A DNA stretch of 64,000 bases. Origin: Nitrospinaceae bacterium. GTDB lineage: Bacteria; Nitrospinota; Nitrospinia; Nitrospinales; Nitrospinaceae. The stretch spans positions 2,112,001 to 2,176,000 of the forward strand of contig OZ245011.1 of the NCBI GenBank assembly GCA_965223665.1, read 5' to 3'. The notes under the pieces were generated by a model. That model saw nothing but the letters and a program-made list of their open reading frames with translations, had not been told where the DNA came from and did not search any database. Within the stretch, counting starts at the first letter, position 1; the number at the start of each line of letters is the position of its first letter. Of the stretch, positions 1,387 through 57,569 are shown in pieces. The position numbers and the translations under genes were made by a program.

Positions 1387-3234
1387 TCAACTCTGGCAGT
1401 GGGTGTCTTTAAACTTGGTTAAGTCTTTTTTCAGGGAAAATTGTTTTTTAATCTTTTCGGCTTCCGTTAGAATTTTGCATCCTTGTTCTGAGGATGAATG
1501 ATCAAAAAGATGAATGGAGTACAGGAGTAACATATTCATCAGGTAATTCTTATAGGGTTCGGGATTGGTTTTAATTTCAGTTCGCAGAAGCCCTAAGGTT
1601 TCATCATAGGTTTTATTGACGGCGTCCACCCTATCTAACTTCTCGTAAACCTCTAACATGGCGGTTAAGGTCGTTATGACTTTCGAGGTAAACACCGTCG
1701 GGTTAATTTCCTTCAACTGTTTAAAAATACTTAAGGCTTCCTGATAGTTTTCAACAGCAGGTTCCAGTTTTCCCTGCTCCTGATAAAGAAGACTTAAAGT
1801 TGTTAATGTGCTGGCCAGATAATTGCCGAAAGCCGGGAAGTTTTTCTCGGCCAGGTTTCTATAAATTTCCAGGGACTGTTTATAATACGCTACACTCTTT
1901 TCATATTGTTTCAAGACCTGGTGAAGCAATCCCAGGTTTCTTAACGTGGACGCATACTCCAATCCATACGCCCGGTTCCTCTCGTAGAATTCTTCATAAA
2001 TTTCCAGCGCCTGGTTAAACTTCTTTGCGGCCAGCTCATTTTTTTTATTCTCAATATAAAGGTGCCCCAGGATATTGTTGATCTGACCGCGATTGGCCGA
2101 AGAAATCAATTTATTCTCTACCTCTTCGTTTTCTTTCAAGGCTTGTTTTAATTTTTTTTCTGACGCTTCAAACTGCTTATCATCCTGAAAAGTAATACCT
2201 AAATCCACCAGGGAAGCAACGACAAAAGGTTGAAACTTTTTCTTGTTTTTTGTGACTAGAAACTGTCGCAACTTTAGCGATTGCTCGAACTGAGGTTTTG
2301 CTTCCTCTATTTTTTTTTCTGCACGGTAGAGCTTCCCCAAATTTTCAAGCGTGTTCGAAATAATTCGCTTTTTTTCGATTCCATTGATTTGGAGTTTCTT
2401 TTTTATTTCTAATGCCGCGAGTAAATGGGACTCCGCTTTTTTGAACCGATTGGTATCCCGGTAAACCATGGCAATATTGTTCAAGGCTTTCGCTAGAGGA
2501 TAATTGTAATCTTCAGGTTTAGATTTGGCCCGGTTGCGGTAAGTGAACAACACTTGCTCATAGTTTTCTTCTGCTTTTTTATACTGTTTTTGCTGATAGT
2601 AAACCTTCGCTAAAGAAAACACATAATCCAGCTTGTCGGGATCTAAATTACTGGCCTTTTTATATTCGGTGAGGGCCCGCAAGGGGTTGAACTCCAGCTC
2701 GTGCATTAACCCTCGCGAATAATAAATAGAAGCCAGCTTTTTTTCTTCTTTCAATGCAAGTTCATCTAATATGTGCCGTGCTTTTTTAAATTCTCCCGCT
2801 TCCAGAAACTGGCGGGCTTTCTCCGCCATAGCATCGGACATTCCGGAAATTTGCAATTGATTATTCAGGGAATCAAATTTTTCTTTCCATTTATTGGCTT
2901 CTTCAATTTTTTTCTCCAGGGAAGAAAACTGCTCTTTTAATATTTTATTGAGCTGAACTAAAGCTTTGGGAGGCAACCCGGAGCAGTCGATATTCACATC
3001 GCCTTTGACTTCATTAATAATGGGACTACAGTCCCCATAAGTGGTCTGAGATTGGCTGGCAACTTTTTCAGGGAAATGAAATTGTAGAATTACGAAAAAA
3101 CCAAGCAGCAGGGCACGCGCGAGCGAAAAACCATAGCATTGCCCTGAATGTTTAAGGGCAGGCTCACCAGGTTCAGGAAAATCAATAAACCTTTTAAACT
3201 TTAATCTAATACTTCCCATCCTGCACTCATTCAA
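1387..3234 (-). CDS. Exported/anchored TPR protein
   Basis: Hydrophobic N-terminal segment, coiled coil, then repeated A-x-TLxNLGxLY TPR units; true start may lie downstream. Confidence 0.85.
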   Translation of the reverse strand: MNECRMGSIRLKFKRFIDFPEPGEPALKHSGQCYGFSLARALLLGFFVILQFHFPEKVASQSQTTYGDCSPIINEVKGDVNIDCSGLPPKALVQLNKILKEQFSSLEKKIEEANKWKEKFDSLNNQLQISGMSDAMAEKARQFLEAGEFKKARHILDELALKEEKKLASIYYSRGLMHELEFNPLRALTEYKKASNLDPDKLDYVFSLAKVYYQQKQYKKAEENYEQVLFTYRNRAKSKPEDYNYPLAKALNNIAMVYRDTNRFKKAESHLLAALEIKKKLQINGIEKKRIISNTLENLGKLYRAEKKIEEAKPQFEQSLKLRQFLVTKNKKKFQPFVVASLVDLGITFQDDKQFEASEKKLKQALKENEEVENKLISSANRGQINNILGHLYIENKKNELAAKKFNQALEIYEEFYERNRAYGLEYASTLRNLGLLHQVLKQYEKSVAYYKQSLEIYRNLAEKNFPAFGNYLASTLTTLSLLYQEQGKLEPAVENYQEALSIFKQLKEINPTVFTSKVITTLTAMLEVYEKLDRVDAVNKTYDETLGLLRTEIKTNPEPYKNYLMNMLLLYSIHLFDHSSSEQGCKILTEAEKIKKQFSLKKDLTKFKDTHCQS

Positions 3235-3284
3235 TCAATAATGAGTTTTTTAACGAAACCAATAGGAGAAAGAGTTTTTTTGGG

Positions 3285-3665
3285 TTAATCTTTTGAGTTT
3301 CCGGAGTTCACACTAAAATTAACATCTCCTCCCACCCCTTCAATAATCGGGCTGCTGTCACCATGCGTTTCCTTATTATTGGTTGGGCTGGACACCGGGT
3401 TATTCCCAGCCGGCACACTTCCCGAGTCAGCTGGAGTGGCATTTTGAGTATTGGACGGTTGGGATTTTGCCGCTTCTTTCTGATAAGACAAAGTCATCCC
3501 GCCAAGCAATGCCAGCAACGCCATAAAGTATGCTGCTTTTGGCACCCATCCGGAGCCGCCCGTTTTAACTATCTTGGGCAAAAATATAAAAACCAAAAAC
3601 AGGGCGAACCCCACCAAACCTAAAGGATTGGTAACTATGTCAATCCATTTATCGATACTGGCCAA
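3285..3665 (-). CDS. Small 2-TM protein with low-complexity linker and C-terminal GDSSPII..GDVN motif
   Basis: Two hydrophobic helices; GGAG RBS; motif shared with the neighbouring TPR protein. Confidence 0.8.
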   Translation of the reverse strand: MASIDKWIDIVTNPLGLVGFALFLVFIFLPKIVKTGGSGWVPKAAYFMALLALLGGMTLSYQKEAAKSQPSNTQNATPADSGSVPAGNNPVSSPTNNKETHGDSSPIIEGVGGDVNFSVNSGNSKD

Positions 3666-3741
3666 GAGATATCTCCTTAAAAGATTCTAATAACTTTAAT
3701 ATTGGTCCTTCAGTCAAAAATTACAATGTTATCTCCCACAC

Positions 3742-5265
3742 TTAATAAAGAAACTTTATACCCGCAGTCGCAATATTTTCCTTAAAATCAACAATCGGAA
3801 AATTTGAAATACTATCAATGTGCTTGTAGCTGATTATAAATTCGAAATAGGTGAACATGTATCTGGACCAGCTGACATCAAAGATATGGCGCTTGTCCAG
3901 ACGATCGGTACCTATAAGAGGCGTAATATTTTTATAGTCACGAATGAAATACGAATAACCAAACTCCAGTTTGCCCTTGAAACAAGTGGGCACCTTTCCT
4001 GCGGTGATAAACTTATGGCCCACAAAATCGAACCGGGGCCCTTCGGTATTTTCTATGACCAGTTCGTATCCCACTTTAAAAGAAGCTTTACCATTATTAA
4101 AGTTTACGCTCTGCGAAATTCCTAACGAATATCTCACCCCGTCTCTGATTTGGTTTATATCACGTAAAAAGTTTTTCAACTGTGTGAGAAAATACAGGTT
4201 CAAATAAAAACTGGGATTGGATAAATCCACCCCCAGTAAATTGAGGTCGGATTTTAAATTGCCTACTTCCCTTCCACCGCTCAGCAGGAAACCATTGGTC
4301 TGAAGGAAACCCGATCCGCCTAAAAAGTTATAATAATAAAGATAATCCAACCCAAAATCGTATTTCCCCGCCTTAAAGTTATTGGAGAAAGTGATCGCGT
4401 GGGTTTGCAAATTAAATTCATTCTCGTCCACGTAGATACTCTGGAAAAAGTTATACTCCACCTCGGAGGAATACTTTCGTTTATCCACAATTCGAACCCC
4501 GCCACCGGCTTCAAAAATAAAAGCGACGTCAGACGCTTGCGATACCAAATCCTGTTCTGAACTGATTAAATTGTCATCGTACTGAACGCTGGAACCTGCT
4601 TCGAACCACCATCTTTTTTTCTTGCGCTTGCCGGTGTGCATGTTCTGAAGATAATCATTTGCCTGTTTCGAAATATCCGATTGAGAATCTAATTGAATGG
4701 CATCGCTGAAACTGACTTTCGCCTGCGCCAGATCTCCGTTTCTAAAATGAAAAATTCCCAGATAGTATAGATAGGGTTGGGTAAACCGGTTGTCCAATTG
4801 CGAGGCTTCCTTTAAGAAAACCATCGCCTGTTGGGAGTCGTCGAGTTTTTTTAAAGTCACCCCTTTATAAAACAAGGCAGAAGCATCTTGAGGATGGTTT
4901 TTTAAATAGAGATCAAATTCTTTCAAAGCGTTTTCAAAATGTTGCGCCTGGTAATTTACCAGGCCCTTTTGAAAACTTAAATCTGAAAGAGACTCATCCA
5001 AAGATTGGGCTTTTTCGTAAGCCTCAATCGCAGCATCATACTTTTTTTGGGATTTGTAGACTTGCCCCAGATAAAAATAGGCGAAGGCATTTTGGGGTTC
5101 TGCTTTAATGATTTGATTGAATATCGCTTCTGCTTCGTTGTATTTCTTATTTTTAAAATATTCAATTCCCTTTTGGAAATCAGGGGCAGAGGGTTCTCCA
5201 TAAGAAATGACTGGAGCCAGTAATATGAGGACCGCTATCTGAATCAATAGCCAGTATTTTTTCAT
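3742..5265 (-). CDS. TPR plus outer-membrane beta-barrel protein (Slam/DUF560-like)
   Basis: Signal peptide, N-terminal TPRs, alternating aromatic beta-strands, C-terminal GIKFLY. Confidence 0.7.
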   Translation of the reverse strand: MKKYWLLIQIAVLILLAPVISYGEPSAPDFQKGIEYFKNKKYNEAEAIFNQIIKAEPQNAFAYFYLGQVYKSQKKYDAAIEAYEKAQSLDESLSDLSFQKGLVNYQAQHFENALKEFDLYLKNHPQDASALFYKGVTLKKLDDSQQAMVFLKEASQLDNRFTQPYLYYLGIFHFRNGDLAQAKVSFSDAIQLDSQSDISKQANDYLQNMHTGKRKKKRWWFEAGSSVQYDDNLISSEQDLVSQASDVAFIFEAGGGVRIVDKRKYSSEVEYNFFQSIYVDENEFNLQTHAITFSNNFKAGKYDFGLDYLYYYNFLGGSGFLQTNGFLLSGGREVGNLKSDLNLLGVDLSNPSFYLNLYFLTQLKNFLRDINQIRDGVRYSLGISQSVNFNNGKASFKVGYELVIENTEGPRFDFVGHKFITAGKVPTCFKGKLEFGYSYFIRDYKNITPLIGTDRLDKRHIFDVSWSRYMFTYFEFIISYKHIDSISNFPIVDFKENIATAGIKFLY

Positions 5266-43947: not shown

Positions 43948-44430
43948 ATGAAACGAATCTTGTTTACATTGCTATTGGCTGTGGTTCTTTGGGGTGGGAT
44001 TGTAGTGGAATCTGCGCTGGCGGCAGACCGGAACTACAAAATCGAAAACTGCGATCGCAAAAAACTATGGGAAGGTTTTTCAATTGAACTGCAAATTGAA
44101 AAACCGGAACTGATCGAATTTTTAGATAAATATGTTAAACCTACAAAAGAAGCTCCTAAATTAAACGAATCCGACTACAAAGATATTGAACAGTTTGACC
44201 AAAAATTTCAATGGAATGTTTCTGAGTGTATATTATTTTTTAAAGAAGCAAATCAATTAATAAATTCTGTCTATGAATTGGACAATAAGCAAGCTACTAA
44301 TATTTCTTGGGTGTTTACTTATTTATTTTCAAGAATGGACATCCCCTATGTCGACTTTTACAATAGAACTACGGACAAATGGTCTTTTACCTTTAACTTT
44401 GCGCCTTTAAGGCAAGGAAAAACTTATTGA
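43948..44430 (+). CDS. ~160-aa exported protein family, copy 3
   Basis: Same motifs; 38-nt overlap with 44393. Confidence 0.85.
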   Translation: MKRILFTLLLAVVLWGGIVVESALAADRNYKIENCDRKKLWEGFSIELQIEKPELIEFLDKYVKPTKEAPKLNESDYKDIEQFDQKFQWNVSECILFFKEANQLINSVYELDNKQATNISWVFTYLFSRMDIPYVDFYNRTTDKWSFTFNFAPLRQGKTY

Positions 44431-47400
44431 TACCCTTTTGCTTGTCCCCATCTAAATACTTACTAACAATTTCATATTTTTCGTGATCTCCTTTTTTCTT
44501 AATTTTTTTTGCCTGTTCCCTAGCTCTTTCTATCGCAGACTTTCCGTATAAAAACTCTCCAATCACAAAGGCCAAAGGATTTTTGGTTTTGTTGTATTTC
44601 TTCCACAACCGACCAAACAAATACGCTTCCACCAACTTGATTTGCTCAACCGGGTTTTTCATGACATCGTCAACGTTAAAGTTCAATCCCTCCACCTTCA
44701 ACAGGTTCACCGCATCCACCATGGTCTGCACCTTCGGTCGGGTCAGTTGGAACAAGCCTTTCTCTCCAGTTGACTTCACCAACTTCGGGTTGAGTCCCGA
44801 TAACATCTGCCCCAATGCACCCAACGTCCTATTGATCTGCCGGTCCGCCACCTCATATTCAAAGGGCGCGGTCTTGGTGACTTGATCAAAACTTTGAATG
44901 ATCTCCCGCTCACTATTAAAACTCACAGCACCCACTTTCCAATCCCCTTGCTGCGCGAACAATTCCGGAGCGCGGCCTTGTTTATCGCGGATAATTCCAT
45001 CGATCAAATTCCCCACCGGTGCGCGAGCCCCTTGTGGAAGGCTGTTTAACATTTCATCTTTTCCGTCCTTTAAGGTTTCCCCGGTCATTCGATACGCATT
45101 TTCGGCCAATACCGTCAGATTATATACCGTACCCTCCGTAAACATCAGGTAATCTCCCAGGCGCACTTTACCTTCTTCCCCTTCCATTTCCTCTTTGAAA
45201 ACTTCCAAAGATTCTTCATCCATTCGCATGACCTTCGGAGCTTTCTTATGAGCCAACGCCTTGTGGACCACCGTCGGCGGCTTGTTTCCATCCGCTATTA
45301 TTTGTTGAACTCCTCCGGCGGGCGTCAGGGCATCCAGCGGAAAAAATTTCGATACACTTTTACCGATCACATCGGCGACGTGTTCATTTTGCACAAGTTC
45401 TCCCTTACCGTTCCAAACCATGATCGCTTTCCGGTCCTGCTGCAAACGTGCTTCATAAACTTCGGCAATGTTTTGCATGGTCAGTTCTTTGTTTTCCCGT
45501 TTGAGTTTTTCCCCAATGGCATTACGCATACTCTCCGGAAGAGCGATCAGGTCCTTCACAAACACCTTCTTGTCCCCTACATTGACATAGGAAGAAAGAA
45601 TCTCCTTGTTCGTCAACTCAACTATCCGGCGGCTGACACCATTTATAAATACTTTGTCATGAAACAGACTATTCATGTAATAAGACATTTCTTTTTCACT
45701 GGGTTCCCGACCTAATTTTTCCTTAAAGTTTTTAAACTTAATTCCTAAAAAAGCATTGGCTCTATCGAAAACATTTTTACGAGTTTCCCGACCCAGGCCA
45801 TTGGCTTTAGCAATGCCCGACAACTTGTTTTGAAAGTTCGCCTTTTTTTCAAGAGAGCTTTCGGACTGAACCGTCTTTTGCCATTGTTTAAAGTTATCCA
45901 CCGTCCAATGTTTTTGAATCAGTTCGTTCAGTCGGGTCTCATCAAACACTTCTTCAAAGGAGCCGCCCTCTGACAATACTTTTTGTAAAACGTCCGTCAA
46001 GACCACGTTTCTAAACTCCGGGTCAAAGTTCACCGACTCCACTTTTTGGCTTAGCGTTCGCAACAGATTCAGTTTATTTTGCAACCGCGTTTTCACCACA
46101 TTGATATCCCCAACCTGCTGTACCTCTCCCTGTTCCGAGTTTTGAACGATTCGTTGATCTTCCTGAATCCCTCCTATAAATTCGTATAGCTTCGAGCGAA
46201 ACTTTCCTTTTTCGTAATGATTCACATCGAATTGATACGCGAAGTTTTTCGCGGGATCCCGGTCACTTAACAAAATGTTATCCACCCATCCCCCAACGGT
46301 TCGGGATTCCTGCTTCAACACGTAATGAGAATTTTCTTCTTTCGCCGATTCCTTAACTTGACCCTGAGACGCAATATCATTTTGGGTAGAGACCAATGTG
46401 GCGGCAGTTCCATCTGCACTGTCTTCTTCAAGGTTCACATCCAGCGAAGTTTTAAACGGCCGTCCGTCATCCACCGCCAATACCGCCTTCCCCGTGAATT
46501 GAGGGGGTTGAAACTCCGGGTCACCCTGCGTGCGCTCTTTGAGTTGCGCCTTCATTACCTGCTTCGTTTTTTCATCTAAAGAATTAAAATCCGGATGGTA
46601 ATGCAAATCCACCAGCGTGGGACTCGTCGGACTGTCCCAAATAAACTTGAAAACCTTCTCACTGTTATCATAGTTCAGTTTTAATTGTTTTCGCTTCTCC
46701 TCCAGATTCCGATGCACCAGTAACTGCCGGGTCATCTCCAACTCTTCCGGATCATCAATATGCCGGAGTTCCTCCTGTTGCTCTTCTTCCGGCAAGGACT
46801 CCAGCACCACCACATTGTGCTGAGCTTTTTCCAGAGTCACCCTTTCCTTAATCCGCGCTTCCAGTTGCGCTTTGTCGGTTTTGACAAACTTGTTTTGATT
46901 CTCCTTAAAAAATTGCTCCGCCTCTTCCCCTTGCTGGCGGTCCAGTAAGCCGTTAACCACACTCAGGGCCACCGCTTCTTCAATATTGGCGGTTTCCGCC
47001 TGGTCCCGTTCCTCACTCCACTCCATCGCCACTTTCATTTGACCCATGGTTCGGTACAAACTCACAATGTGTTTTTCTCTTCCATCAACATCGAGCGGAT
47101 TATCACGTATCGCTTTCAGCAAAGCGGCACGCGTGTGCTGGTAATCCTGAATCAGAGCCCGTTTCCGCTGAGTTTCTTCATACACTCCAGCCCGTTGAAA
47201 CAAATCTGCAAATTTTTGTTTTAAAATGGGCTCATACTCTTTCCGCACATACGACCGCATACCCCCTAACGCATTTTGGAGAGCCTGAAATTTTTCCGAG
47301 GCCGTATCCAATCCGTACTTTTCCATGAGTTCCGGATCCGTCGTGACGGTGGCACTTTCACTTGTAGTCGTATCAGCCGGTTCGAACAAAGGTTTTACGA

Positions 47401-47701
47401 TCTTAACAAGCGCATCCGTGTAGCCAAAACTCCTCTCTCCTTTCAAGGGAGCCAACGTTTTCATTACACTTTCTACATACTCGGTCGTCGCTTTATCTGC
47501 TTTCATTACGGATTGACCATCCGACCTGCGTCTTTGCACGTCCATGAATACAGCCGCTTCGCCTAAAGTGTCACTGAGTGCGGCCAGATTGCGCACTTTC
47601 GCTCCACCGACCAGTTCCGGCGTGACATTCAAACGCAACTGGCCGCCCCCAAGGGATTGGGGATTCACGGTGGGGTTATTTAACGCGGGGATTTTGGGCA
47701 T
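44393..47701 (-). CDS. Internal virion (ejection)-like protein with degenerate SLT-like C-terminal domain
   Basis: MPKIP start, long helical body, position in the structural cluster; tip KGLFQLT..PVEQIKLVEAYL..PLAFVIGEF. Confidence 0.75.
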   Translation of the reverse strand: MPKIPALNNPTVNPQSLGGGQLRLNVTPELVGGAKVRNLAALSDTLGEAAVFMDVQRRRSDGQSVMKADKATTEYVESVMKTLAPLKGERSFGYTDALVKIVKPLFEPADTTTSESATVTTDPELMEKYGLDTASEKFQALQNALGGMRSYVRKEYEPILKQKFADLFQRAGVYEETQRKRALIQDYQHTRAALLKAIRDNPLDVDGREKHIVSLYRTMGQMKVAMEWSEERDQAETANIEEAVALSVVNGLLDRQQGEEAEQFFKENQNKFVKTDKAQLEARIKERVTLEKAQHNVVVLESLPEEEQQEELRHIDDPEELEMTRQLLVHRNLEEKRKQLKLNYDNSEKVFKFIWDSPTSPTLVDLHYHPDFNSLDEKTKQVMKAQLKERTQGDPEFQPPQFTGKAVLAVDDGRPFKTSLDVNLEEDSADGTAATLVSTQNDIASQGQVKESAKEENSHYVLKQESRTVGGWVDNILLSDRDPAKNFAYQFDVNHYEKGKFRSKLYEFIGGIQEDQRIVQNSEQGEVQQVGDINVVKTRLQNKLNLLRTLSQKVESVNFDPEFRNVVLTDVLQKVLSEGGSFEEVFDETRLNELIQKHWTVDNFKQWQKTVQSESSLEKKANFQNKLSGIAKANGLGRETRKNVFDRANAFLGIKFKNFKEKLGREPSEKEMSYYMNSLFHDKVFINGVSRRIVELTNKEILSSYVNVGDKKVFVKDLIALPESMRNAIGEKLKRENKELTMQNIAEVYEARLQQDRKAIMVWNGKGELVQNEHVADVIGKSVSKFFPLDALTPAGGVQQIIADGNKPPTVVHKALAHKKAPKVMRMDEESLEVFKEEMEGEEGKVRLGDYLMFTEGTVYNLTVLAENAYRMTGETLKDGKDEMLNSLPQGARAPVGNLIDGIIRDKQGRAPELFAQQGDWKVGAVSFNSEREIIQSFDQVTKTAPFEYEVADRQINRTLGALGQMLSGLNPKLVKSTGEKGLFQLTRPKVQTMVDAVNLLKVEGLNFNVDDVMKNPVEQIKLVEAYLFGRLWKKYNKTKNPLAFVIGEFLYGKSAIERAREQAKKIKKKGDHEKYEIVSKYLDGDKQKGINKFFLALKAQS

Positions 47702-47815
47702 AAAGTTCACCTGAGTTGAGTGTTACACGGTTTGTTTGAAATTTCCTAAAAAAAGTTTCGATTACAATGTTTATTCCATTGACATCATTTTCAAAGAGTC
47801 CTATATTATTCACAT

Positions 47816-47942
47816 GCCGCCTCGTGCTCATCCCTCCTCTGCAGTCTCACTGGATGTGATTTAGTTTGGGATTGCTTATGAAGCAGGGATGTCAGGTCCA
47901 GGGACATCTAAGGCGTTTGTGGGGGCGCTTTCGCGAGGCGGC
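47816..47942 (+). ncRNA. Structured RNA unit 1 (type A)
   Basis: TTGACA(47779)-N17-TATATT; closing stem GCCGCCTCGTG/CGCGAGGCGGC; three internal hairpins. Confidence 0.8.
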
Positions 47943-48102
47943 TCCGGATTCTCTCCTTCCCCATTTATTCTAATTTTGATTCTTACAATCATTTAGAAAA
48001 CTCGGGGTTACCTGCTGGTAGATTTTCGGAAAGTGGTTCCATTTTCGTTTTCCGAACAGTTAGTATTGACACGATCATTGAATAATCCTATAGTAATCAT
48101 AA

Positions 48103-48228
48103 GCCGCTTCGTGCTCTGCCATCAAGAGCATGCTGACTAGGTTATTTTTTTCAGTATAGCTTTGGAAAGTAGGGGCATCCAGTCTAGGGGTGCCTGAAGT
48201 GTTTGTGGGGGCACTTCCTTGGAGCGGT
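48103..48228 (+). ncRNA. Structured RNA unit 2 (type B)
   Basis: TTGACA(48066)-N17-TATAGT; same fold with divergent sequence. Confidence 0.75.
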
Positions 48229-48293
48229 TTAAATTTCGTTTTCCGAATATTTAGTATTGACACGATCATTTAAAAATCATATATTATTAACAT

Positions 48294-48419
48294 GCCGCTT
48301 CGTGCTCATCCCTCCTGGATAATCTCACTGGACGCGTTATCATTGGGGTTATCTACCAAGCAGGGGTGTCAGGTCCAGGGACATCTAAGGCGTTTGTGGG
48401 GGCGCTTTCGCGAGGCGGC
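48294..48419 (+). ncRNA. Structured RNA unit 3 (type A)
   Basis: TTGACA(48257)-N17-TATATT; same fold. Confidence 0.8.
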
Positions 48420-48582
48420 TCCAGATTCCCTCCTTCCCCATTTATTCTAATTTTGATTCTTACTATCATTTAGAAAACTCTGAATTCCCTGCAGGTGGAA
48501 TTTCAAAAAGTGGCTCAAATTTCGTCTTCCAAAAAAAAAATGGTATTGACACGATCATTGTAAAATCATATATTATTCATAA

Positions 48583-48704
48583 GCCGCTTCGGACTCTAAC
48601 GCCAGGGACTTTACTGACTAGGCCTTAATTCAGTATTAGTTTCGACAGGAGGGACATCAGGCCTAGGGATGTCCAAAAGTGTTCGGGACACTTTACGAAG
48701 CGGT
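48583..48704 (+). ncRNA. Structured RNA unit 4 (type B)
   Basis: TTGACA(48546)-N17-TATATT; loops CTAGGCCT/AGGCCTAG perfectly complementary. Confidence 0.75.
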
Positions 48705-48769
48705 TGATATATTTCTTCTTCCGAATTTCTTGTTGACACGATCATTTAAAAATCATATATTATTCACAT

Positions 48770-48896
48770 GCCGCCTCGTGCTCATCCCTCCTGGGTAATC
48801 TCACTGGACGCGTTATCTTTGGGGTTACTTGTGAAGCAGGGATGTCAGGTCCAGGGACATCTAAGGCGTTTGGTGGGGGCGCTTTCGCGAGGCGGC
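48770..48896 (+). ncRNA. Structured RNA unit 5 (type A), adjacent to the nuclease-tipped gene
   Basis: TTGACA(48733)-N17-TATATT; same fold. Confidence 0.8.
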
Positions 48897-48941
48897 TCCG
48901 GATTCTCTCCATCCCCTTTTATCTAATTTTTATTCTTACAC

Positions 48942-51900
48942 TCAATTAGAAATCTCGGAATTTCCTGCTGGTGGGTTTTCAGAAAGTGGTTCCATTTTTC
49001 CCTTCTTCACTTTATTTTTTATGTAGTTTCCGGACTCAGGAAAACTACTTCTAACTGTATAAAATGTCTCCTTTTCTTCTATAAGTTCTAGAACGGCTAT
49101 TTTTCCCTTACCATTTCTTTTAACTATAATCACGGCTCCATTAGATTTTTGATAAAGCGCTTCAGTATAATTTTTTGTAATATCATAAACAAATTCAGTA
49201 AGGTTTTTGTACTCTGGAAAGTCCCTAAGAATCTTTTCAACTCTGTTAGGGGTTGCCTCAATATGGATACGACCAAAATCATTATCACCTACTTGAAATC
49301 TAATTTTATGTGCCGGAACTTTTCTTCCAGACGGAGTATACATTTCTTTCATTTCCCCAAAGTCGATTCCCCCATCCGGTGATTCCACAAAAGCCTTCGG
49401 GCCCATTCGGATGGAGCCTCTTTCGGAGCGGAGCCACTCGGGAACGGCTTCTACAAAACCGGAACGTTTGACTTCTTTTATGAACTCGACCAGGTGTTTT
49501 ACCCCTTTGCCGGTCAGTTCAAACGCTTCGCCCATGGCTCCGCCTTCGACCACGTTCTTCAGGGCTTTTTCCAGTTCGCTGTCGTCGATTTTCGAGGCCA
49601 GGAAATCGGTAAGAGGATTACGCAGTTCGGGGGCCATTTCGTTGAACAGGTTGGAAAGGTTCTGATCCCGATCCACCGTCAGCAAGTCCGCCGCGATGCC
49701 CGCGATCACGTTCCCGGAACTAAAAAATTCTTTCGACAACACCGCATTTCCCTTGGCAAAGATTCTACGACTGACCAGAAATCCCAACGCAAACGAAAAC
49801 AGTCCGCGAGCCATTTGCACGCCGGGGTTGCTGGAGGCTTCCATCCGCTCCATTTCTATGGGCATGCGTCCGCCGATTCCCCAGTCGTCCAGCCATTCCT
49901 GAACTGTGGTGTTACCGATTTTCAAATCCCGCAGGTCCTGTCCCAGCTCCGTCACCAGAGTCAACAAATTGATCGCCGCATCTTTCGTTCCACCGACGAC
50001 AATGTTCTCGGCCTGGCTCAATAAGCTTTCTTCCCGCCGAAGTTCGGTGTTATCCATACCTGCCAATCGAATTTTAAAATCTCCTCCAAGGGCAACGCCA
50101 TTCGCAAGAGTGACCTGCTTCCCCTGAGACTGAAGTTCTTTTACAAAGATTTCTTTTTTCTCCGGCGGCAATTGCAATAGATTCACGTATTCCTCAAAAC
50201 TGATGTCCTGTTTATTAAACCGGGCATTTTCTCTCAGGGTTTTGTTCTGACTCAAATGGGTCGCAAAATCAGGGATCGATAACTCGATGTCCGTTCCGGG
50301 ATTTAGTGAATTCAATTGCGAGGCAAGGTCGGGAACATTTTGAATAAGATCTTTAAGGTCCAATCCTTCAGTCTCCAGAGCCTGTTGAAACGTTTCCCGA
50401 TTAATAAACACTTTTGGCGTTTGGCTCCCGAAAACCTCAGGATGGTTTTCAACCACTTCTCCTATGTACTGCTTCACTCTTGCGCGGGCGACTCCCTCCG
50501 GCGGCACATCTTTGACCGCTTCATGAATATCCTCCAACATTCTTTTCGTGAGAATAGGCTGATTCGGGTTCGGCTCTGTTCGCTGAGGCAGTCTCAATGG
50601 GGAATTGCCTGTGGAGACCCGGGTCCCTTCGATGAGCGCATTTTCCGGAGAATTATTTTTTATACTATTCCTGGGTAATGGTGGACTTATGGTTTTACTG
50701 GTCCCCTTTGAAGATTTTGGCATCACTTTTTTCAATATCAATTGGGGAACTCCTTCGGCAAATGCTTTATACACCGCATCCGTGGCTTTATCCAATACCT
50801 GTTGTAACCGCTGGGTCGGCGATAACAAAGATCCGGGTTTTTGGGGATCGGATTCCACCGCCATTTCTTTACCCAATTCACTGAAAAATGACTGTAAAAC
50901 ATTTTTTTCCATTTCTTCCGTGATCCCCTGGCTGGTCTGATTGATAGCCTTCAGTAATTTTTTTCCTTTTTTACTGGTCAAAAATGTTTTGATTCCATCC
51001 GAGATATATTTTTTGGAAGCTTTGGAGAGCGGTTTGGTAAAAATCTTCCCGCCAAAAAATTCTACCGCCGCATTGATGGTAGCCACATTGAAGGCAATCG
51101 GTTTGGCCAATTCCATAGAGGTTCCATTCATTACCAGTTCAGCAATCGTCGTTCCATATTGGGTTTTCCAGGTATCGTACGCATCACCGCCTCTGATTCC
51201 CAACCCAAACCCCGTCAAACCGAAAGCCGGTAACGTGACGGCTTCTTCGGGAAGAAAATTGAGTCCCGGAAAATTTCCCAGAATCAGGGATAACTCCACA
51301 CCCGCCAGTGCTCCCGTAAAACCGCCTGTCAACAATTCAGGAGATTTGTGTGCGATATTTGTAAATACTTCCGCGACATTAAAAACCGTTCCGGTCCCCT
51401 TGTTTTGACCCATTAACCGTTCCAAATTTTTAATTTTGTTGAGTGCGGCATCAAATTCTTCCTGGGTGCGACCAGGCTGACTCATGTAATTGCCAATTTC
51501 TGCCCGCTTTCGAAAATAGCCAACAAACTTCATCGCTTTGCCCACATCAATCACGCCTTTTTCAAACACACCTAATTTCCCGACCCTGCCAAAGTCCATT
51601 GAAAAATAATTGAAGTCTTCGGTCATCTTCTTCTGCAATACAGTAGTATCTTTGAAAACCTCTGCGGTCCTTTGGTGATTCCATTCCTTTTGGGCATTTT
51701 GGAAATCGTTTTTTATGATTTCAACCGGTATATCCAGTTTGCGCGATAGAAACTGGATTTGCGCCGCATGTTCCGGAGACACTGAAGAAGAAACCAAAGT
51801 GAATGGGTTTTCCGGCTGTTCATTACGAATAGAACGTTTCAATCCCATAGCGCCATCATAGAACGCGCCAAGTCCTAATCCTCTATCTTCGGATTGTTTG

Positions 51901-52280
51901 TCAAAAACAACTTCTTCCAGAACAGTGGGTGGCCCCACTTGGGCATGCACCTCCCCCTGAGACGGGTTGGACGGAAGATCGCTTTCACCGGTCCCCGGTT
52001 CATTGACATTCAGTCGATTTCCCTGATTACCAAAGTCACCTTTCATTCCTGCATCAAATGGCTCGGTTGAAGACGAGCTATTCGAGCGGCCTAAAGAAGC
52101 CAATTGAACGGGGTCCCCTTCAGAGGGTTCTGTGGAAGGTTCGTTGCCCTCGAATCTCTGTCCAGGATTCGGTGGGTTTAATGGAGATTCTAAAGTATCA
52201 GTATCTTCATCGATGGAGTCCGCTTCTACTGAAACGGAGGATGCCCGTGAAGTGGGTTGTTTTTTAATTTTGATGCCCAT
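48942..52280 (-). CDS. Large internal virion-like protein with C-terminal BECR/PBECR-like nuclease domain
   Basis: Follows the small internal virion gene; Gly/Ala hydrophobic segments; tip DGGIDFGE..IRFQVGDNDFGRIHIE..FVYDITKNY..YTVRSSFP. Confidence 0.7.
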   Translation of the reverse strand: MGIKIKKQPTSRASSVSVEADSIDEDTDTLESPLNPPNPGQRFEGNEPSTEPSEGDPVQLASLGRSNSSSSTEPFDAGMKGDFGNQGNRLNVNEPGTGESDLPSNPSQGEVHAQVGPPTVLEEVVFDKQSEDRGLGLGAFYDGAMGLKRSIRNEQPENPFTLVSSSVSPEHAAQIQFLSRKLDIPVEIIKNDFQNAQKEWNHQRTAEVFKDTTVLQKKMTEDFNYFSMDFGRVGKLGVFEKGVIDVGKAMKFVGYFRKRAEIGNYMSQPGRTQEEFDAALNKIKNLERLMGQNKGTGTVFNVAEVFTNIAHKSPELLTGGFTGALAGVELSLILGNFPGLNFLPEEAVTLPAFGLTGFGLGIRGGDAYDTWKTQYGTTIAELVMNGTSMELAKPIAFNVATINAAVEFFGGKIFTKPLSKASKKYISDGIKTFLTSKKGKKLLKAINQTSQGITEEMEKNVLQSFFSELGKEMAVESDPQKPGSLLSPTQRLQQVLDKATDAVYKAFAEGVPQLILKKVMPKSSKGTSKTISPPLPRNSIKNNSPENALIEGTRVSTGNSPLRLPQRTEPNPNQPILTKRMLEDIHEAVKDVPPEGVARARVKQYIGEVVENHPEVFGSQTPKVFINRETFQQALETEGLDLKDLIQNVPDLASQLNSLNPGTDIELSIPDFATHLSQNKTLRENARFNKQDISFEEYVNLLQLPPEKKEIFVKELQSQGKQVTLANGVALGGDFKIRLAGMDNTELRREESLLSQAENIVVGGTKDAAINLLTLVTELGQDLRDLKIGNTTVQEWLDDWGIGGRMPIEMERMEASSNPGVQMARGLFSFALGFLVSRRIFAKGNAVLSKEFFSSGNVIAGIAADLLTVDRDQNLSNLFNEMAPELRNPLTDFLASKIDDSELEKALKNVVEGGAMGEAFELTGKGVKHLVEFIKEVKRSGFVEAVPEWLRSERGSIRMGPKAFVESPDGGIDFGEMKEMYTPSGRKVPAHKIRFQVGDNDFGRIHIEATPNRVEKILRDFPEYKNLTEFVYDITKNYTEALYQKSNGAVIIVKRNGKGKIAVLELIEEKETFYTVRSSFPESGNYIKNKVKKGKMEPLSENPPAGNSEISN

Positions 52281-52343: not shown

Positions 52344-52871
52344 TTAACTGGAACCCATCTTTTTGACCAGGTCCATAAAATTGTTATTAGATCCCAATCT
52401 GGCGGCGCTTCCCAACAACGTATTGGCGAAGGCAAAGTCCGGCCGTTCTTGATCTGAACTGAACTGCAATAGTTGCGCATTGGCCCGGGCGTTATACTCG
52501 CTGATCTGATGCTCGAACACGCGGCGCTTGGTGTTGTCGCGAATCGTTCCCACATCGAATTCGCCGATGATACCGGTATCGGACATCAACTCCGCCGGTG
52601 TGCCGAAAGTCATGTCTATTCCCTGCGAGGCCAGTGCCGCTTTTTGGGCTCCCACGGTTTGTTTGATTTTTCGTCGATGGTCAAACTCTGCCTGTTTGCC
52701 GACACGTCGAGTATCTTTAATCCGCTCTTGCGCAATCTGTTGATTGTGTCTGGCGATTTGTGCCTGCATGGCCAGGCTGTCTTTTTTCGCCTGACTGGCG
52801 GCCCGATTGCCAAACGCGTTGCTCAATGCGCTTCCCACTGTCGTTGCAACAATCATTGCCGGGTGACACAT
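52344..52871 (-). CDS. Small internal virion protein (T7 gp14-like position)
   Basis: MCHP start, Ala/Gln-rich helix, GAQKAALASQGID..FGTP. Confidence 0.8.
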   Translation of the reverse strand: MCHPAMIVATTVGSALSNAFGNRAASQAKKDSLAMQAQIARHNQQIAQERIKDTRRVGKQAEFDHRRKIKQTVGAQKAALASQGIDMTFGTPAELMSDTGIIGEFDVGTIRDNTKRRVFEHQISEYNARANAQLLQFSSDQERPDFAFANTLLGSAARLGSNNNFMDLVKKMGSS

Positions 52872-53644: not shown

Positions 53645-54652
53645 TTAAACAATTTGCGCTTCAGTGTTAAGAATCGCTTCACACTCGCGAACCGGCATAC
53701 CGCGGTAGGTCATGACTTCGCGTCCGCCAACTTCCATCGGACGCAATCGCGCAAAACTACTGGTGGTCGAAGCGGTTGGAGTAGAGGCAGCATCCAAAGC
53801 TTCCAGCACATCTTTGTTACAATAGATAGCCGCACGGCCGTTAGTGACGGTGCGCTGATATAACGCATAGTAGGCCTGCCGCATGAATTTATAGATGTCG
53901 ACGTTACCCGCCTGCAGTTCAGACACATCAATATTGGCAATGCGCGCGATGTAACGGTAATCACGAACCGACAATCCTAAATCCCAACAGAATTTTTCCC
54001 GGTGCACATCGTACACGGTTCCATCCGGATTAGTTTTAGTCACCTTTCCTTTATCCTCACGATCCAACCCGGCTTTGGTGCCTTTGGGGTAGATGCCATG
54101 ACAGGTGCGTTCGCCCCAAACCACAAACCACACGCTGGTGTTGTCCGATCCGGTTCCACCGGCATCGATGATCTGACCGGAAGTTTCGTTACCGCTGAGC
54201 GCACTGAAGCGAGGGGCAAAGCCCATAAACTTTTCAGGGTCAGTTCCAGTGTCACCATAAAACACGGTGCTGGCCATGGTGTTGTTCATGCCTTCGATAA
54301 ATCCGGAAGATTCATTGAGGCGGAACTGTCCCGGATTTTTTGCCAACTTAACAAGTTTTGAGTCAATCTCACTCCACGCTTCCAGCATTCCGGTGGTATC
54401 TTCCACCTGCTTGTTGGTGGTTTTGGTGGGTTGCACACCCTGGTACAACAACCGCCACACGCCGGCAGGAATACCGGTACGCACGGTGGTTAAATGCTTG
54501 GTGCCGTTGTTGCATTCCATCACAATCATATCTTCCAGGATCGGATTGGTTTGGCTCATCTGTTCGATGATCGCTGCGGTGATGCCGCCCATGCCGTCCT
54601 GTTGTTTATACAAATCCATCAGGGTTAAATAGGTATTTCCTAATGTTGCCAT
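53645..54652 (-). CDS. Major capsid protein (BPP-1/epsilon15-like)
   Basis: LSQTN-like MSQTNPILED, HLTTVRTGIP..WR, FYGD...PEKFMG, IIDAGGTGSDNTS, RDYRYIARIANID. Confidence 0.93.
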   Translation of the reverse strand: MATLGNTYLTLMDLYKQQDGMGGITAAIIEQMSQTNPILEDMIVMECNNGTKHLTTVRTGIPAGVWRLLYQGVQPTKTTNKQVEDTTGMLEAWSEIDSKLVKLAKNPGQFRLNESSGFIEGMNNTMASTVFYGDTGTDPEKFMGFAPRFSALSGNETSGQIIDAGGTGSDNTSVWFVVWGERTCHGIYPKGTKAGLDREDKGKVTKTNPDGTVYDVHREKFCWDLGLSVRDYRYIARIANIDVSELQAGNVDIYKFMRQAYYALYQRTVTNGRAAIYCNKDVLEALDAASTPTASTTSSFARLRPMEVGGREVMTYRGMPVRECEAILNTEAQIV

Positions 54653-54888: not shown

Positions 54889-55629
54889 TTAATAGGTGTT
54901 TCCTTTTTCGTTAGGGTAAAGGATTTCGGCGGGACTTTTCGCCTGGTTGCCCGTGCGGGAACCGGATACATATCCATCCTCGCTGAGACCTTTACCGACA
55001 CGATACAGAAAGCGAATGAACTCCGGATGGTCACCTATGCCTAACTCCTCAGACAGCACTTGCAGTTGAGACCACGGTCGGCCTCTTTCATCCACATAGG
55101 GTTTGCCATGAGGACTCATCAAGGGCTTGCCGTTTTTATCCAAGGCGGGCGGGCTGAACCGGTCCATCGCTTGCTTAGCGACTCCCAGCTTTCCCGATAA
55201 ATTATCGCCGCCGATTTCGCTATCGGCTTTGACGGTATCTATCCACTGAGTTCGCTCCTGTTCAAAAGCATGATCTTCCATTTCCATCAAACGGTCCTGG
55301 ACATTGAAAAAATAATCAACGCCCGCTTGCGTTTGCTGTTGCGTTAAGCCATAACTGTTGGCCAACTCGGAAATTTCATTAAAATGCTCCTGATTCATTT
55401 CCACCCCTTCGGGAATATTAAACGGCTCGTAATAATCGAGCGTTCCTTCTTTTCCATGAAAGTCTTCCTTCTCCCGGGGGGAATTGTCTCCGGCGGGTTG
55501 AGTGTCGCCGGTGTCGTGGCTGCCTCCATCTTCTTTGTACAAGATAGAAGCGGCCGTTTCATCACCTACCGATTGAGTGTTATTTTGTTCGGTCGGATAC
55601 AGTATTTCGGCTGTCATAAAATTCTCCAT
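54889..55629 (-). CDS. Capsid scaffolding protein
   Basis: Acidic; LTQQQTQ, D.EIGG, G.HPEFIRFLYRVGKGLSED, C-terminal AEILYP. Confidence 0.8.
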   Translation of the reverse strand: MENFMTAEILYPTEQNNTQSVGDETAASILYKEDGGSHDTGDTQPAGDNSPREKEDFHGKEGTLDYYEPFNIPEGVEMNQEHFNEISELANSYGLTQQQTQAGVDYFFNVQDRLMEMEDHAFEQERTQWIDTVKADSEIGGDNLSGKLGVAKQAMDRFSPPALDKNGKPLMSPHGKPYVDERGRPWSQLQVLSEELGIGDHPEFIRFLYRVGKGLSEDGYVSGSRTGNQAKSPAEILYPNEKGNTY

Positions 55630-55910: not shown

Positions 55911-57569
55911 CTAATTTCCGGTTAACATTTGTTTAATATCGGTCAACGCATTGGCACCTCCGGTGTCGGTCTCCGAAAGTGTCTTCGCTGCGTCGGCCGT
56001 TTCCATCATGCCCTGCATCTGCTGCATCATGGCTTGTTGTTGATCTTCTTTCTTACGAATGAGCGCGACTTGTTCATTGGCGACGATCACATGGGAAGGC
56101 ACCCCATACATATCCGCCAATTCGTCGACCAGAACATCAAAATTAACTTTGCCGGTTGCACGTGGAAAAAGCTGACTGATAGAACCCACGGAACCCAGCA
56201 AACGCTCAATCCCGTTGATGCCTACCGACTTCTGCGCCTGGGCCAACATGCCGACGAACTCAACGGTTAGATCCATGCCGGACATTTCCTGCGGAATCGG
56301 TGGGAACAAATCATTCTCCATGGCCAACTCAAAAGCGATGTCTATGAGCGGACCACCGATTTCGTTCTGCCCGCGCTCCAGCACCGGTCCCAGGATCAGC
56401 AACTTCTCGGAATGTTTTTCCTCGATTTCACGAGCCGTGACTTGACGCCGATCCGACAGCGCGATCATTTGAAACAAATCGGTAAAGAAAGTCGTTCGGA
56501 TTCGATCCCGAATATCCTGAATGTCCAGGAGGATAGGATTCAGATCAACGTTCACTTCGAACGCGGTTCGAATCCCACCTGCCGGATGGTTCTGGTCATA
56601 AAAGGTTTTACCACCGGGCAGGACATCGCTCGAATCCTTCAACGAAGAAGGTATCTGCAACGGCGGATCGGTTTTATAATCGATGGCATTGCTTTTCTTC
56701 AACTGGTCGAACTGCAACTGTTGAATACTGCCCAACGCCTGCATGCCGGGACCGTGGCCGTAAATATCCTGACCTCGGGTGACCCATCGGGGAACCAGAC
56801 CGGGAAAATTACGATACCCGCTCTCCCGCAAAAACTTGTCCTTCTCGTTGGTCTTGGCTTCATAGTGCACCGACATGAAGGGCATGTTTTTATTGTCATG
56901 CTTTTTATGATCGCGTTCTCGACGCGGCTCGATGGCATGGATCACCGTCACCCAATCGTCATAGCGACCGTTGTTGTAACGATCCTTGACGCGCTGGCTG
57001 ACGTTTTCCAATCCATATTCCTGAACCAACGCCGCCACCTGCATATCAAACTCGCGGTAGAGCGTATCCACTTCGCCGCGATTATTGTTGGCGATGTAAT
57101 ACTCTCCCACGGTTTGAGGATGGAGGCGGATGACATCTTTAAAGTCGCGTGTCACCACGGCGCTGGCGGTGCCGAACGCACCGCGCTCTTCATACATTCC
57201 ATGAAGAACGCGATACGTATTGGATCCGTTGAATATGGCCATCAAAACGTCGCGAGCCGCATCCATCCATTGACGGATGGGCCCGAACTTTGCACGATCT
57301 TTGTCCGGAGAACCCAGGCGGAACCAATTCTTTGCAGGGCTGGTTTCTCCGGCCATTTCCCCCGCAGCCAACACTCCTAACGCATGACTCGCAGTTTCAT
57401 CGATAATCTCGTTGAAGTCCCGTTTCTTGTTCCGTTCGGTGGTTAAGAACCGACCGCTCACCGGAAGAAGGTGCGAGCTGATACTGCGGTACACACTGTC
57501 GAAGGTCGACCGTTCCGTCTTCATCGATTTCAATCGTCTGTTATGGTACTCTCGTTTTGATTCTGCCAT
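55911..57569 (-). CDS. Portal / head-to-tail connector
   Basis: TSPAKNWFRL, VDTLYREF, PRW....YG.GPGM.AL, TAREIEEK..EKL.ILGPVLER. Confidence 0.93.
   Translation of the reverse strand: MAESKREYHNRRLKSMKTERSTFDSVYRSISSHLLPVSGRFLTTERNKKRDFNEIIDETASHALGVLAAGEMAGETSPAKNWFRLGSPDKDRAKFGPIRQWMDAARDVLMAIFNGSNTYRVLHGMYEERGAFGTASAVVTRDFKDVIRLHPQTVGEYYIANNNRGEVDTLYREFDMQVAALVQEYGLENVSQRVKDRYNNGRYDDWVTVIHAIEPRRERDHKKHDNKNMPFMSVHYEAKTNEKDKFLRESGYRNFPGLVPRWVTRGQDIYGHGPGMQALGSIQQLQFDQLKKSNAIDYKTDPPLQIPSSLKDSSDVLPGGKTFYDQNHPAGGIRTAFEVNVDLNPILLDIQDIRDRIRTTFFTDLFQMIALSDRRQVTAREIEEKHSEKLLILGPVLERGQNEIGGPLIDIAFELAMENDLFPPIPQEMSGMDLTVEFVGMLAQAQKSVGINGIERLLGSVGSISQLFPRATGKVNFDVLVDELADMYGVPSHVIVANEQVALIRKKEDQQQAMMQQMQGMMETADAAKTLSETDTGGANALTDIKQMLTGN

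Follow-up and report, generated by a model that had tools for sequence, protein, structure and literature searches.

The window analysed here, a 64,000-nucleotide stretch of a 4.35 Mb Nitrospinaceae genome (G000 below), carries on its minus strand a prophage head and ejection-protein module, recognized by PHROG and domain searches. Its features are collected in table 1. The span between the genes of the two largest proteins, P0001 and P0002 (47711–48941), holds only five RNA units with their promoters, all on the plus strand, and no protein immunity gene lies in it directly 3' of the toxin domain of P0001. Small open reading frames inside this array (for example 48075–48269) were considered as possible immunity proteins and rejected, since the units show RNA covariation and their promoters are on the opposite strand. 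No tRNA or tmRNA gene was found in the 64,000-nt window.

Table 1. Features of the prophage module, the RNA array and the nuclease-gene tips (positions in the window)
Feature	Position	Strand	Remarks
Portal	55911–57569	-	Head module
Protease	54889–55629	-	Head module
Major head protein	53645–54652	-	Head module
Internal virion protein	52344–52871	-	Head module
P0001, 1112 AAs	48942–52280	-	Internal-virion (ejection) type with probable C-terminal BECR-fold nuclease domain; ORF and translation; PHROG phrog_6651, E 1.4e-8
Nuclease domain of P0001	48942–49430	-	C-terminal, residues 951–1112, variable part of the gene
Live tip	48942–48998	-	End of P0001: last 18 codons and TGA, ending KMEPLSENPPAGNSEISN then stop
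RNA unit A3, type A	48766–48900	+	Adjoins live tip; promoter 48733–48761; R1 model 136.7 bits
RNA unit B2, type B	48579–48708	+	Promoter 48546–48574; R1 model 101.5 bits
Relic tip 2	48466–48522	-	After RNA unit A2; KFEPLFEIPPAGNSEFSK then stop; translation of 48466–48543(-)
RNA unit A2, type A	48290–48423	+	Promoter 48257–48285; R1 model 134.5 bits
RNA unit B1, type B	48099–48232	+	Promoter 48066–48094; R1 model 137.2 bits
Relic tip 1	47989–48045	-	After RNA unit A1; KMEPLSENLPAGNPEFSK then stop; translation of 47989–48063(-)
Conserved spacer	47947–47988		RNA A1 to relic tip 1; equivalents 48424–48465 and 48901–48941
RNA unit A1, type A	47812–47946	+	Promoter 47779–47807; R1 model 128.6 bits
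P0002, 1105 AAs	44393–47710	-	Gene after the array; SLT-like C-terminus (weak SLT match)

The five units are each about 133 nt long and alternate in the order A-B-A-B-A, the odd-numbered ones being type A and the even-numbered ones type B. Each has a promoter of the form TTGACA-17-TATATT or TTGACA-17-TATAGT that agrees with the consensus at 11 of 12 positions, and the array region contains 8 promoter-like sites where chance would give 2.9. An alignment of ten units, drawn from G000 and from the related genome G001 of the same genus, shows a shared long terminal helix plus several hairpins; 94.5% of its cells are paired, compared to 40–45% when the partner is slid, two-sided changes occur at 8 pairs (in 26 cells), and the covariation score was reached by none of 500 shuffles. 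A search of 47000–49500 against Rfam at E≤10 returned three chance-level matches (best E 0.085), none of which falls on an RNA unit in the strand of that unit. The units are real structured RNAs of an undescribed family, with 15 copies in four genomes. The type A units are 84–91% identical to one another, whereas B1 and B2 are 64% identical. Unit A2 of the window is 94% identical to unit 1 of G001 and 84% identical to A1 of its own array, and B1 is 95% identical to unit 3 of G001 over alignment columns 1–99; judged by these identities, the unit variants predate the split between G000 and G001 or were exchanged.

The DNA identity of the P0001 gene to G001 falls from about position 49380 downward. 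A search of 1.84 billion representative sequences with the last 162 residues of P0001 yielded 193 homologues at E≤1e-3, many of them embedded in proteins of 2000–5000 AAs. Neither P0001 nor its C-terminal piece matches a Pfam PBECR model, and three of 32 aligned homologues match PBECR3 (PF18812) below the cut-off (best E 1.7e-6, 28.4 bits vs 30). An AlphaFold (AF2) model of the domain made from 32 sequences has a pLDDT of 90.3, with a strand at its residues 146–148 and low confidence in the rest of the tail. Its top structural matches are nearly all BECR/RelE-type RNase toxins at middling Z values below 8, led by the CdiA-CT structure 7m5f_C (Z 7.3, rmsd 4.2, 102 aligned) and colicin D 5znm_B (Z 5.8), with CdiA-CT 8ey4_A (Z 5.4), colicin D 1tfk_A (Z 5.3) and BrnT (Z 5.0) also among them. 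Because the Z values are middling and the best Foldseek E value for the model is 0.04, a BECR-fold, PBECR3-like predicted RNase is the probable, not the proven, identity of the domain. The histidine of the G-R-I-H-I-E motif in P0001, a candidate for the catalytic one of BECR-fold RNases, is nearly invariant in the domain alignment. In the copies of two other genomes, G025 (L011 4600–4700) and G034 (L012 5150–5250), this column is a lysine and a K-H pair is present a few residues further on; these two copies may have a different active site or may be inactive RNA binders.

The domain is present in four of 61 related genomes searched by protein (G000, G001, G025 and G034), and the covariance model found the RNA in the same four among 120 Nitrospinota genomes, in 5, 6, 3 and 1 copies, respectively. 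The G025 units were first found by a model built from G000 and G001 only, and the G034 unit by a model that excluded it. Of the 15 units, 14 come immediately 3' of a gene that ends in the nuclease domain and are convergent to it; in G001, G025 and G034 the terminal helix of the RNA touches or overlaps the stop codon of the live gene. The Nitrospinaceae prophage carriers of the domain are ejection proteins of 1016–1112 AAs; the carriers in G025 and G034 are proteins of 480 and 464 AAs that are unrelated to them. Since domain and RNA co-occur on unrelated carriers, the two form a module, and within the four genomes of two genera from which the system is known (few cases, and related ones) sequence comparison shows nuclease domain and adjacent RNA gene to behave as a co-inherited, exchangeable cassette.

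Searches farther afield returned little. A scan of genome contigs for relatives found G001 alone, and among 50,697 phage records tblastn found nothing that matches the domain. The 5' pattern of the RNA picked out 119 metagenome stretches, of which the 80 that were checked with the covariance model (all single pattern matches) included none that was confirmed; two weak rows among these 80, L092 (E 0.025) and L055 (E 0.16), are taken as chance. Among viral contigs the RNA pattern found one stretch, which the covariance model did not confirm, the spacer pattern found none, and the conserved pre-toxin protein region found no relatives.

Two of the type A units in the window are followed on the minus strand by copies of the last 18 codons and stop of the P0001 gene. 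A sequence-only reading of this DNA had pointed to these fragments after units 1 and 3, in frame with the live end and with synonymous changes, and translation confirms both peptides and their placement, with the correction that the unit boundaries also overlap an element upstream of the next promoter. The relics retain about 18–21 codons only and do not amount to a nuclease domain. All three tips lie inside a 191-nt direct repeat whose three copies are spaced 477 and 476 nt apart (87% and 73% identical to the reference copy), there is no indel over the 57 nt of the tip, and the TGA is at the identical place in every copy, so the likeness of the tips is far beyond chance; a frame kept over 57 nt is, taken alone, unremarkable. 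Compared with the live tip, the two relics have 8 and 11 changed bases out of 57, of which 4 and 5, respectively, are synonymous. Frame and stop are retained in all five tip copies of the window's family (the N-family), which are of one tip type, and pairwise pN/pS among them is about 0.3, relic-versus-relic pairs included.

The tips line up with the final conserved strand of the domain family (a G-R-K-L-L-W-like stretch, of which a G025 relic keeps GRYIPLW). In the longer tails of the G001 protein and of P0008, a third allele that differs again from both P0001 and the G001 protein, an internal segment is collinear with the G000-type tip. Parsimony places 5, 4 and 13 changes at codon positions 1, 2 and 3 of the five N-family tips (P=0.012 against one third) and 1, 1 and 7 in the live and relic pair of G025 (P=0.008); together 20 of 31 fall at position 3 (P=0.0004), and 25 of 48 do so (P=0.006) when a decayed relic, the one after unit 2 of G025, is added, which by itself has no codon bias (6, 6 and 5). 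The 9 base differences of the G025 pair change only 2 of 12 residues (simulation P=0.00035). The excess is also present between relics, with 4, 4 and 10 changes in relic-versus-relic comparisons (P=0.043) and 11 of 20 differences at third positions between positionally matched relics of G000 and G001 (P=0.038). As the differences among tips are mostly at third codon positions, the relics derive from coding sequence. The earlier view of the fragments as vestiges of the coding 3' end of the nuclease gene thus holds, since the last conserved strand of the domain is kept and variation is mostly at third codon positions.

The array of G001 also has five units and is collinear with that of the window. 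Its relics after units 1 and 3 read KPLFENPPTGNSEFSK and KPLFENPPAGNPEFSK, each with its stop, and its live gene ends in SKFKKKLSESGKK and a stop about 40 residues further on, an end so different that the G001 relics resemble the live tip of G000 and not that of G001 itself. G025 likewise has two relics, as do the window and G001. The stretch after its first unit reads ...KCGRYIPLWSS and stop, compared to ...KSGRYIPLWSK and stop in its live gene; that after its second unit contains a premature stop, and it matches the G034 live tip with a local score of 46, where null comparisons reach at most 37. The RNA of this second unit is 80% identical to that of G034 and 64–68% identical to the other units of G025, so tip and RNA type travel together.

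Between residues 746 and 975 P0001 is nearly identical to the G001 protein, and from there on the two diverge sharply. At the DNA level the two genomes are 87–97% identical before the domain, 33–62% identical across the domain and the adjacent RNA, and 68–97% identical and collinear over the rest of the array, both relics included. By this comparison, the difference between G000 and G001 is a cassette swap of the nuclease domain plus its adjacent RNA. The swap, the only one open to reconstruction, left no new relic behind, as both arrays keep five units and two relics. The sequence-only reading had set its proposal of other alleles against simple duplication with no allelic variation of the tip in relatives, and such variation is present: the C-terminal domain and tip vary among relatives, and G001 holds G000-type relics. 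The five tips of the window's family are, on the other hand, a single type. A relic and RNA of G025 are live in another species, G034, in line with the check proposed in that reading, but no full-length allele that ends exactly in the relic peptides of the window is present in the best 150 of the 193 representative matches. The same is true of the close homologues, of which searches found three for the end of P0001 and two for that of G025; none of them ends in a relic peptide.

We think it probable that the relics are vestigial 3' ends of the nuclease gene that were kept together with their RNA, and that cassettes were stacked by recombination, some of them from diverged alleles. The nuclease domain of a virion-packaged ejection protein would be exchanged as a cassette with the adjacent RNA gene, and recombination between cassettes would stack units of tip plus RNA downstream of the live gene, each vestigial end (about 18 codons, the stop and the 3' spacer) staying joined to the convergent RNA that once abutted the live copy. 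Some cassettes appear to have been imported from diverged alleles in related prophages; for the window's own family we infer such import. The first codons of each relic overlap the short element that precedes every promoter, and a similar element is present in the live gene about 20 codons before its stop. A putative crossover at this element, common to the last codons of the gene and the region upstream of each RNA promoter, would yield exactly the junctions seen. Our conclusion, drawn from the arrays of G025/G034 and G001, is that the arrays are likely to have grown by unequal recombination between cassettes of tip plus RNA, some from diverged alleles, and block duplication inside the lineage may have contributed in the window itself. 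The proposal that the array records serial replacement of the toxin tip, each event leaving the old RNA behind, therefore has partial support, in the reality of the relics and the existence of other alleles; the G000/G001 swap is relic-free and the 477-nt A-B-A-B-A period fits block duplication, which leaves strictly serial replacement a conjecture.

The chief competing explanation is in-situ tandem duplication, in which a 477-nt block of tip, RNA A and RNA B was duplicated twice by unequal crossing-over in one prophage lineage, with the live tip under purifying selection and the copies drifting. The regular 477/476-nt period and the A-B-A-B-A order are what it predicts, and the single tip type of the window's family, the swap without a relic and the plain decay of one relic agree with it. 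With constraint on the live copy alone and drifting relics, about 46–50% of differences are expected at third positions, so that the observed 20 of 31 rejects such a model weakly (P=0.03–0.07) and the third-position test alone is compatible with duplication in situ. The third-position excess between relics (P=0.043) speaks against it, as do the units that are closer between genomes than inside one genome, the heterogeneous G025 array with a cassette that is live in G034, and the G001 relics that are unlike the live tail of G001; the 64% identity of B1 and B2 beside 84–91% among the A units is left unexplained by one block history. We regard duplication alone as rather unlikely. The third-position bias between matched relics and the conservation of the spacer may be due to gene conversion by live alleles or to some function of the stretch itself.

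That the tip-like stretches are not relics at all, and are instead part of the type A RNA transcription unit (a 3' tail, a terminator or an antisense arm) into one copy of which the nuclease gene reads, is improbable. The 43-column spacer beside the tip changes at 0.26 substitutions per site, close to the first and second codon positions of the tip and below the 0.68 of the third (five copies, two genomes); no intrinsic terminator was found after the type A units; and the first codons of the tip overlap the element upstream of the next promoter, all of which such a tail would accommodate. Yet the tip has its counterpart in the final conserved strand of the domain family and inside the G001 and P0008 tails, its variation is codon-like, the likeness of spacer plus tip to the RNA units is insignificant (scores 19–26, null 95% level 25–26), the stretch has no conserved fold (-8.8 kcal/mol, covariation term +0.6), and in G001, G025 and G034 the live stop meets an RNA that has no such tail. 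The spacer and its equivalents, taken by themselves, have no predicted conserved fold and no ORF. Least probable are silent cassettes, kept in frame and periodically recombined into the live gene to switch its tail as in antigenic-variation loci, for although frame and stop are intact in five of five copies and most differences between the matched G000 and G001 relics are at third positions, the numbers are small, the relics are 18 codons only and mostly predicted to be disordered, one G025 relic has an internal stop, and no recombinase or inverted repeats were seen apart from one weak inverted pair.

Effector displacement in the warfare loci of bacteria leaves as its signature vestigial toxin ends next to partner genes that were kept, and in Rhs and CDI loci displaced effector 3' ends and orphan immunity genes stack. 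PMC5361080 describes effector displacement with orphan immunity arrays in the type VI secretion effector-immunity clusters of Vibrio cholerae, together with a "shifting back" of the 3' end of the old effector, and names C-terminal displacement in Rhs/CDI. The prophage locus is like these in its conserved delivery part followed across a sharp boundary by a variable C-terminal toxin domain, in its downstream orphan modules with vestigial toxin 3' fragments, and in new toxin and partner modules that would enter by recombination while old partner genes are kept downstream. It differs in that the partners are opposite-strand structured RNA genes with their own promoters rather than protein immunity genes, in that the carrier is a phage ejection protein rather than a secretion-system effector, and in relics that keep about 12–20 codons. 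Here the signature marks small RNA genes beside a phage-delivered predicted RNase domain.

The PBECR domains, as Iyer et al. 2017 (PMC5512222) present them, are predicted RNases of phage polyvalent proteins that are packaged in virions. The P0001 domain resembles them as a predicted BECR-fold RNase that ends large virion-associated proteins encoded among head genes, and in its mosaic, fast-changing domain architectures, although P0001 itself reaches no Pfam PBECR model. The main text of that paper contains "noncoding RNA" 0 times, and in none of 12 out of 27 passages is an associated RNA gene or an immunity factor for PBECR brought up.

The arrangement of the RNAs suggests possible roles for them. 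It is possible, if short of probable, that the RNA neutralises the nuclease and so would shield the lysogen from leaky expression or from nuclease injected by superinfecting relatives; this would fit because the promoters look constitutive and face the nuclease gene, the linkage holds across carriers, the RNA is swapped together with the domain, and old units are retained. A more specific and somewhat more doubtful proposal is that the RNAs are allele-specific immunity factors against an injected phage RNase, transcribed in the lysogen from constitutive promoters and binding or decoying the BECR domain of superinfecting phages, with the old tip and RNA arrays widening the protection. The main alternative is antisense control or transcriptional interference, since the RNA genes point into the 3' end of the nuclease gene. 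If the RNAs do neutralise the nuclease, they would be an RNA-based counterpart of immunity proteins and the locus a new class of phage–phage or phage–host conflict module; if they are allele-specific, this would be the first orphan-immunity array made of RNA genes. Even without immunity, the RNAs are a new structured family, with no Rfam match, that is tightly linked to PBECR-like nucleases.

By its layout the locus is neither a type III nor a type I toxin-antitoxin system. Type I pairs such as txpA/RatA and bsrG/SR4 have a convergent antisense RNA that overlaps the 3' end of the toxin gene. The window likewise has, in a prophage, an RNA gene that converges on the end of a putative toxin gene, but its toxin is a domain of a 1112-AA protein where theirs is a small membrane peptide, and its RNA has its own conserved fold with covariation; transcript overlap is only putative here. 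Type III systems (ToxIN and others) pair an endoribonuclease toxin with a tandemly repeated structured RNA, whose repeats lie upstream of a ToxN/AbiQ-type toxin gene on the same strand and in one transcript. A nuclease paired with tandem structured RNAs is common to both, but the units of the window are about 133 nt long, have five separate promoters and are convergent to the nuclease gene, and its fold matches are BECR toxins rather than ToxN-like proteins.

Several smaller observations may be added. The first 390 or so residues of the nuclease-bearing protein of G001 are homologous to the N-terminus of P0002 (36% identity, E 2e-70; window 46538–47710(-) and L009 9999–11171(-)), and the P0001 N-terminus is without homology to the N-terminus of that protein, so the nuclease module is on different carriers in the two prophages. 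Unit 3 of G001 (L009 7525–7774) is a chimera, its first two thirds 95% identical to B1 and its 3' end, following spacer and tip type A-like, which indicates recombination inside RNA units. Metagenome contigs contain similar B/A joints, from 48201 to 48397 and to 48874. DNA contigs from four public runs of one study have variant units and joints (e.g. 48201 to 48397) that probably stem from co-occurring relatives and were left out of the evidence. In two of these four runs contigs join 47640 to 48756, skipping 1115 nt, which could reflect a relative whose array is much shorter or whose genes are in another order. Finally, the sixth RNA copy of G001 stands alone in a second prophage (L010 1290–2160, equal to G001:C13:184290–185160) with a TTGACA-17-TATAAT promoter. 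About 140 nt further downstream, in the same orientation, follows a 187-AA ORF with a HEPN domain (PF05168, E 3.4e-6), and a gene nearby encodes a protein of 1252 AAs in which the conserved pre-toxin region is all that is shared. This RNA upstream of a HEPN gene has the type III order, and the pair is, as judged from the domain match, a second link to an RNase-type toxin.
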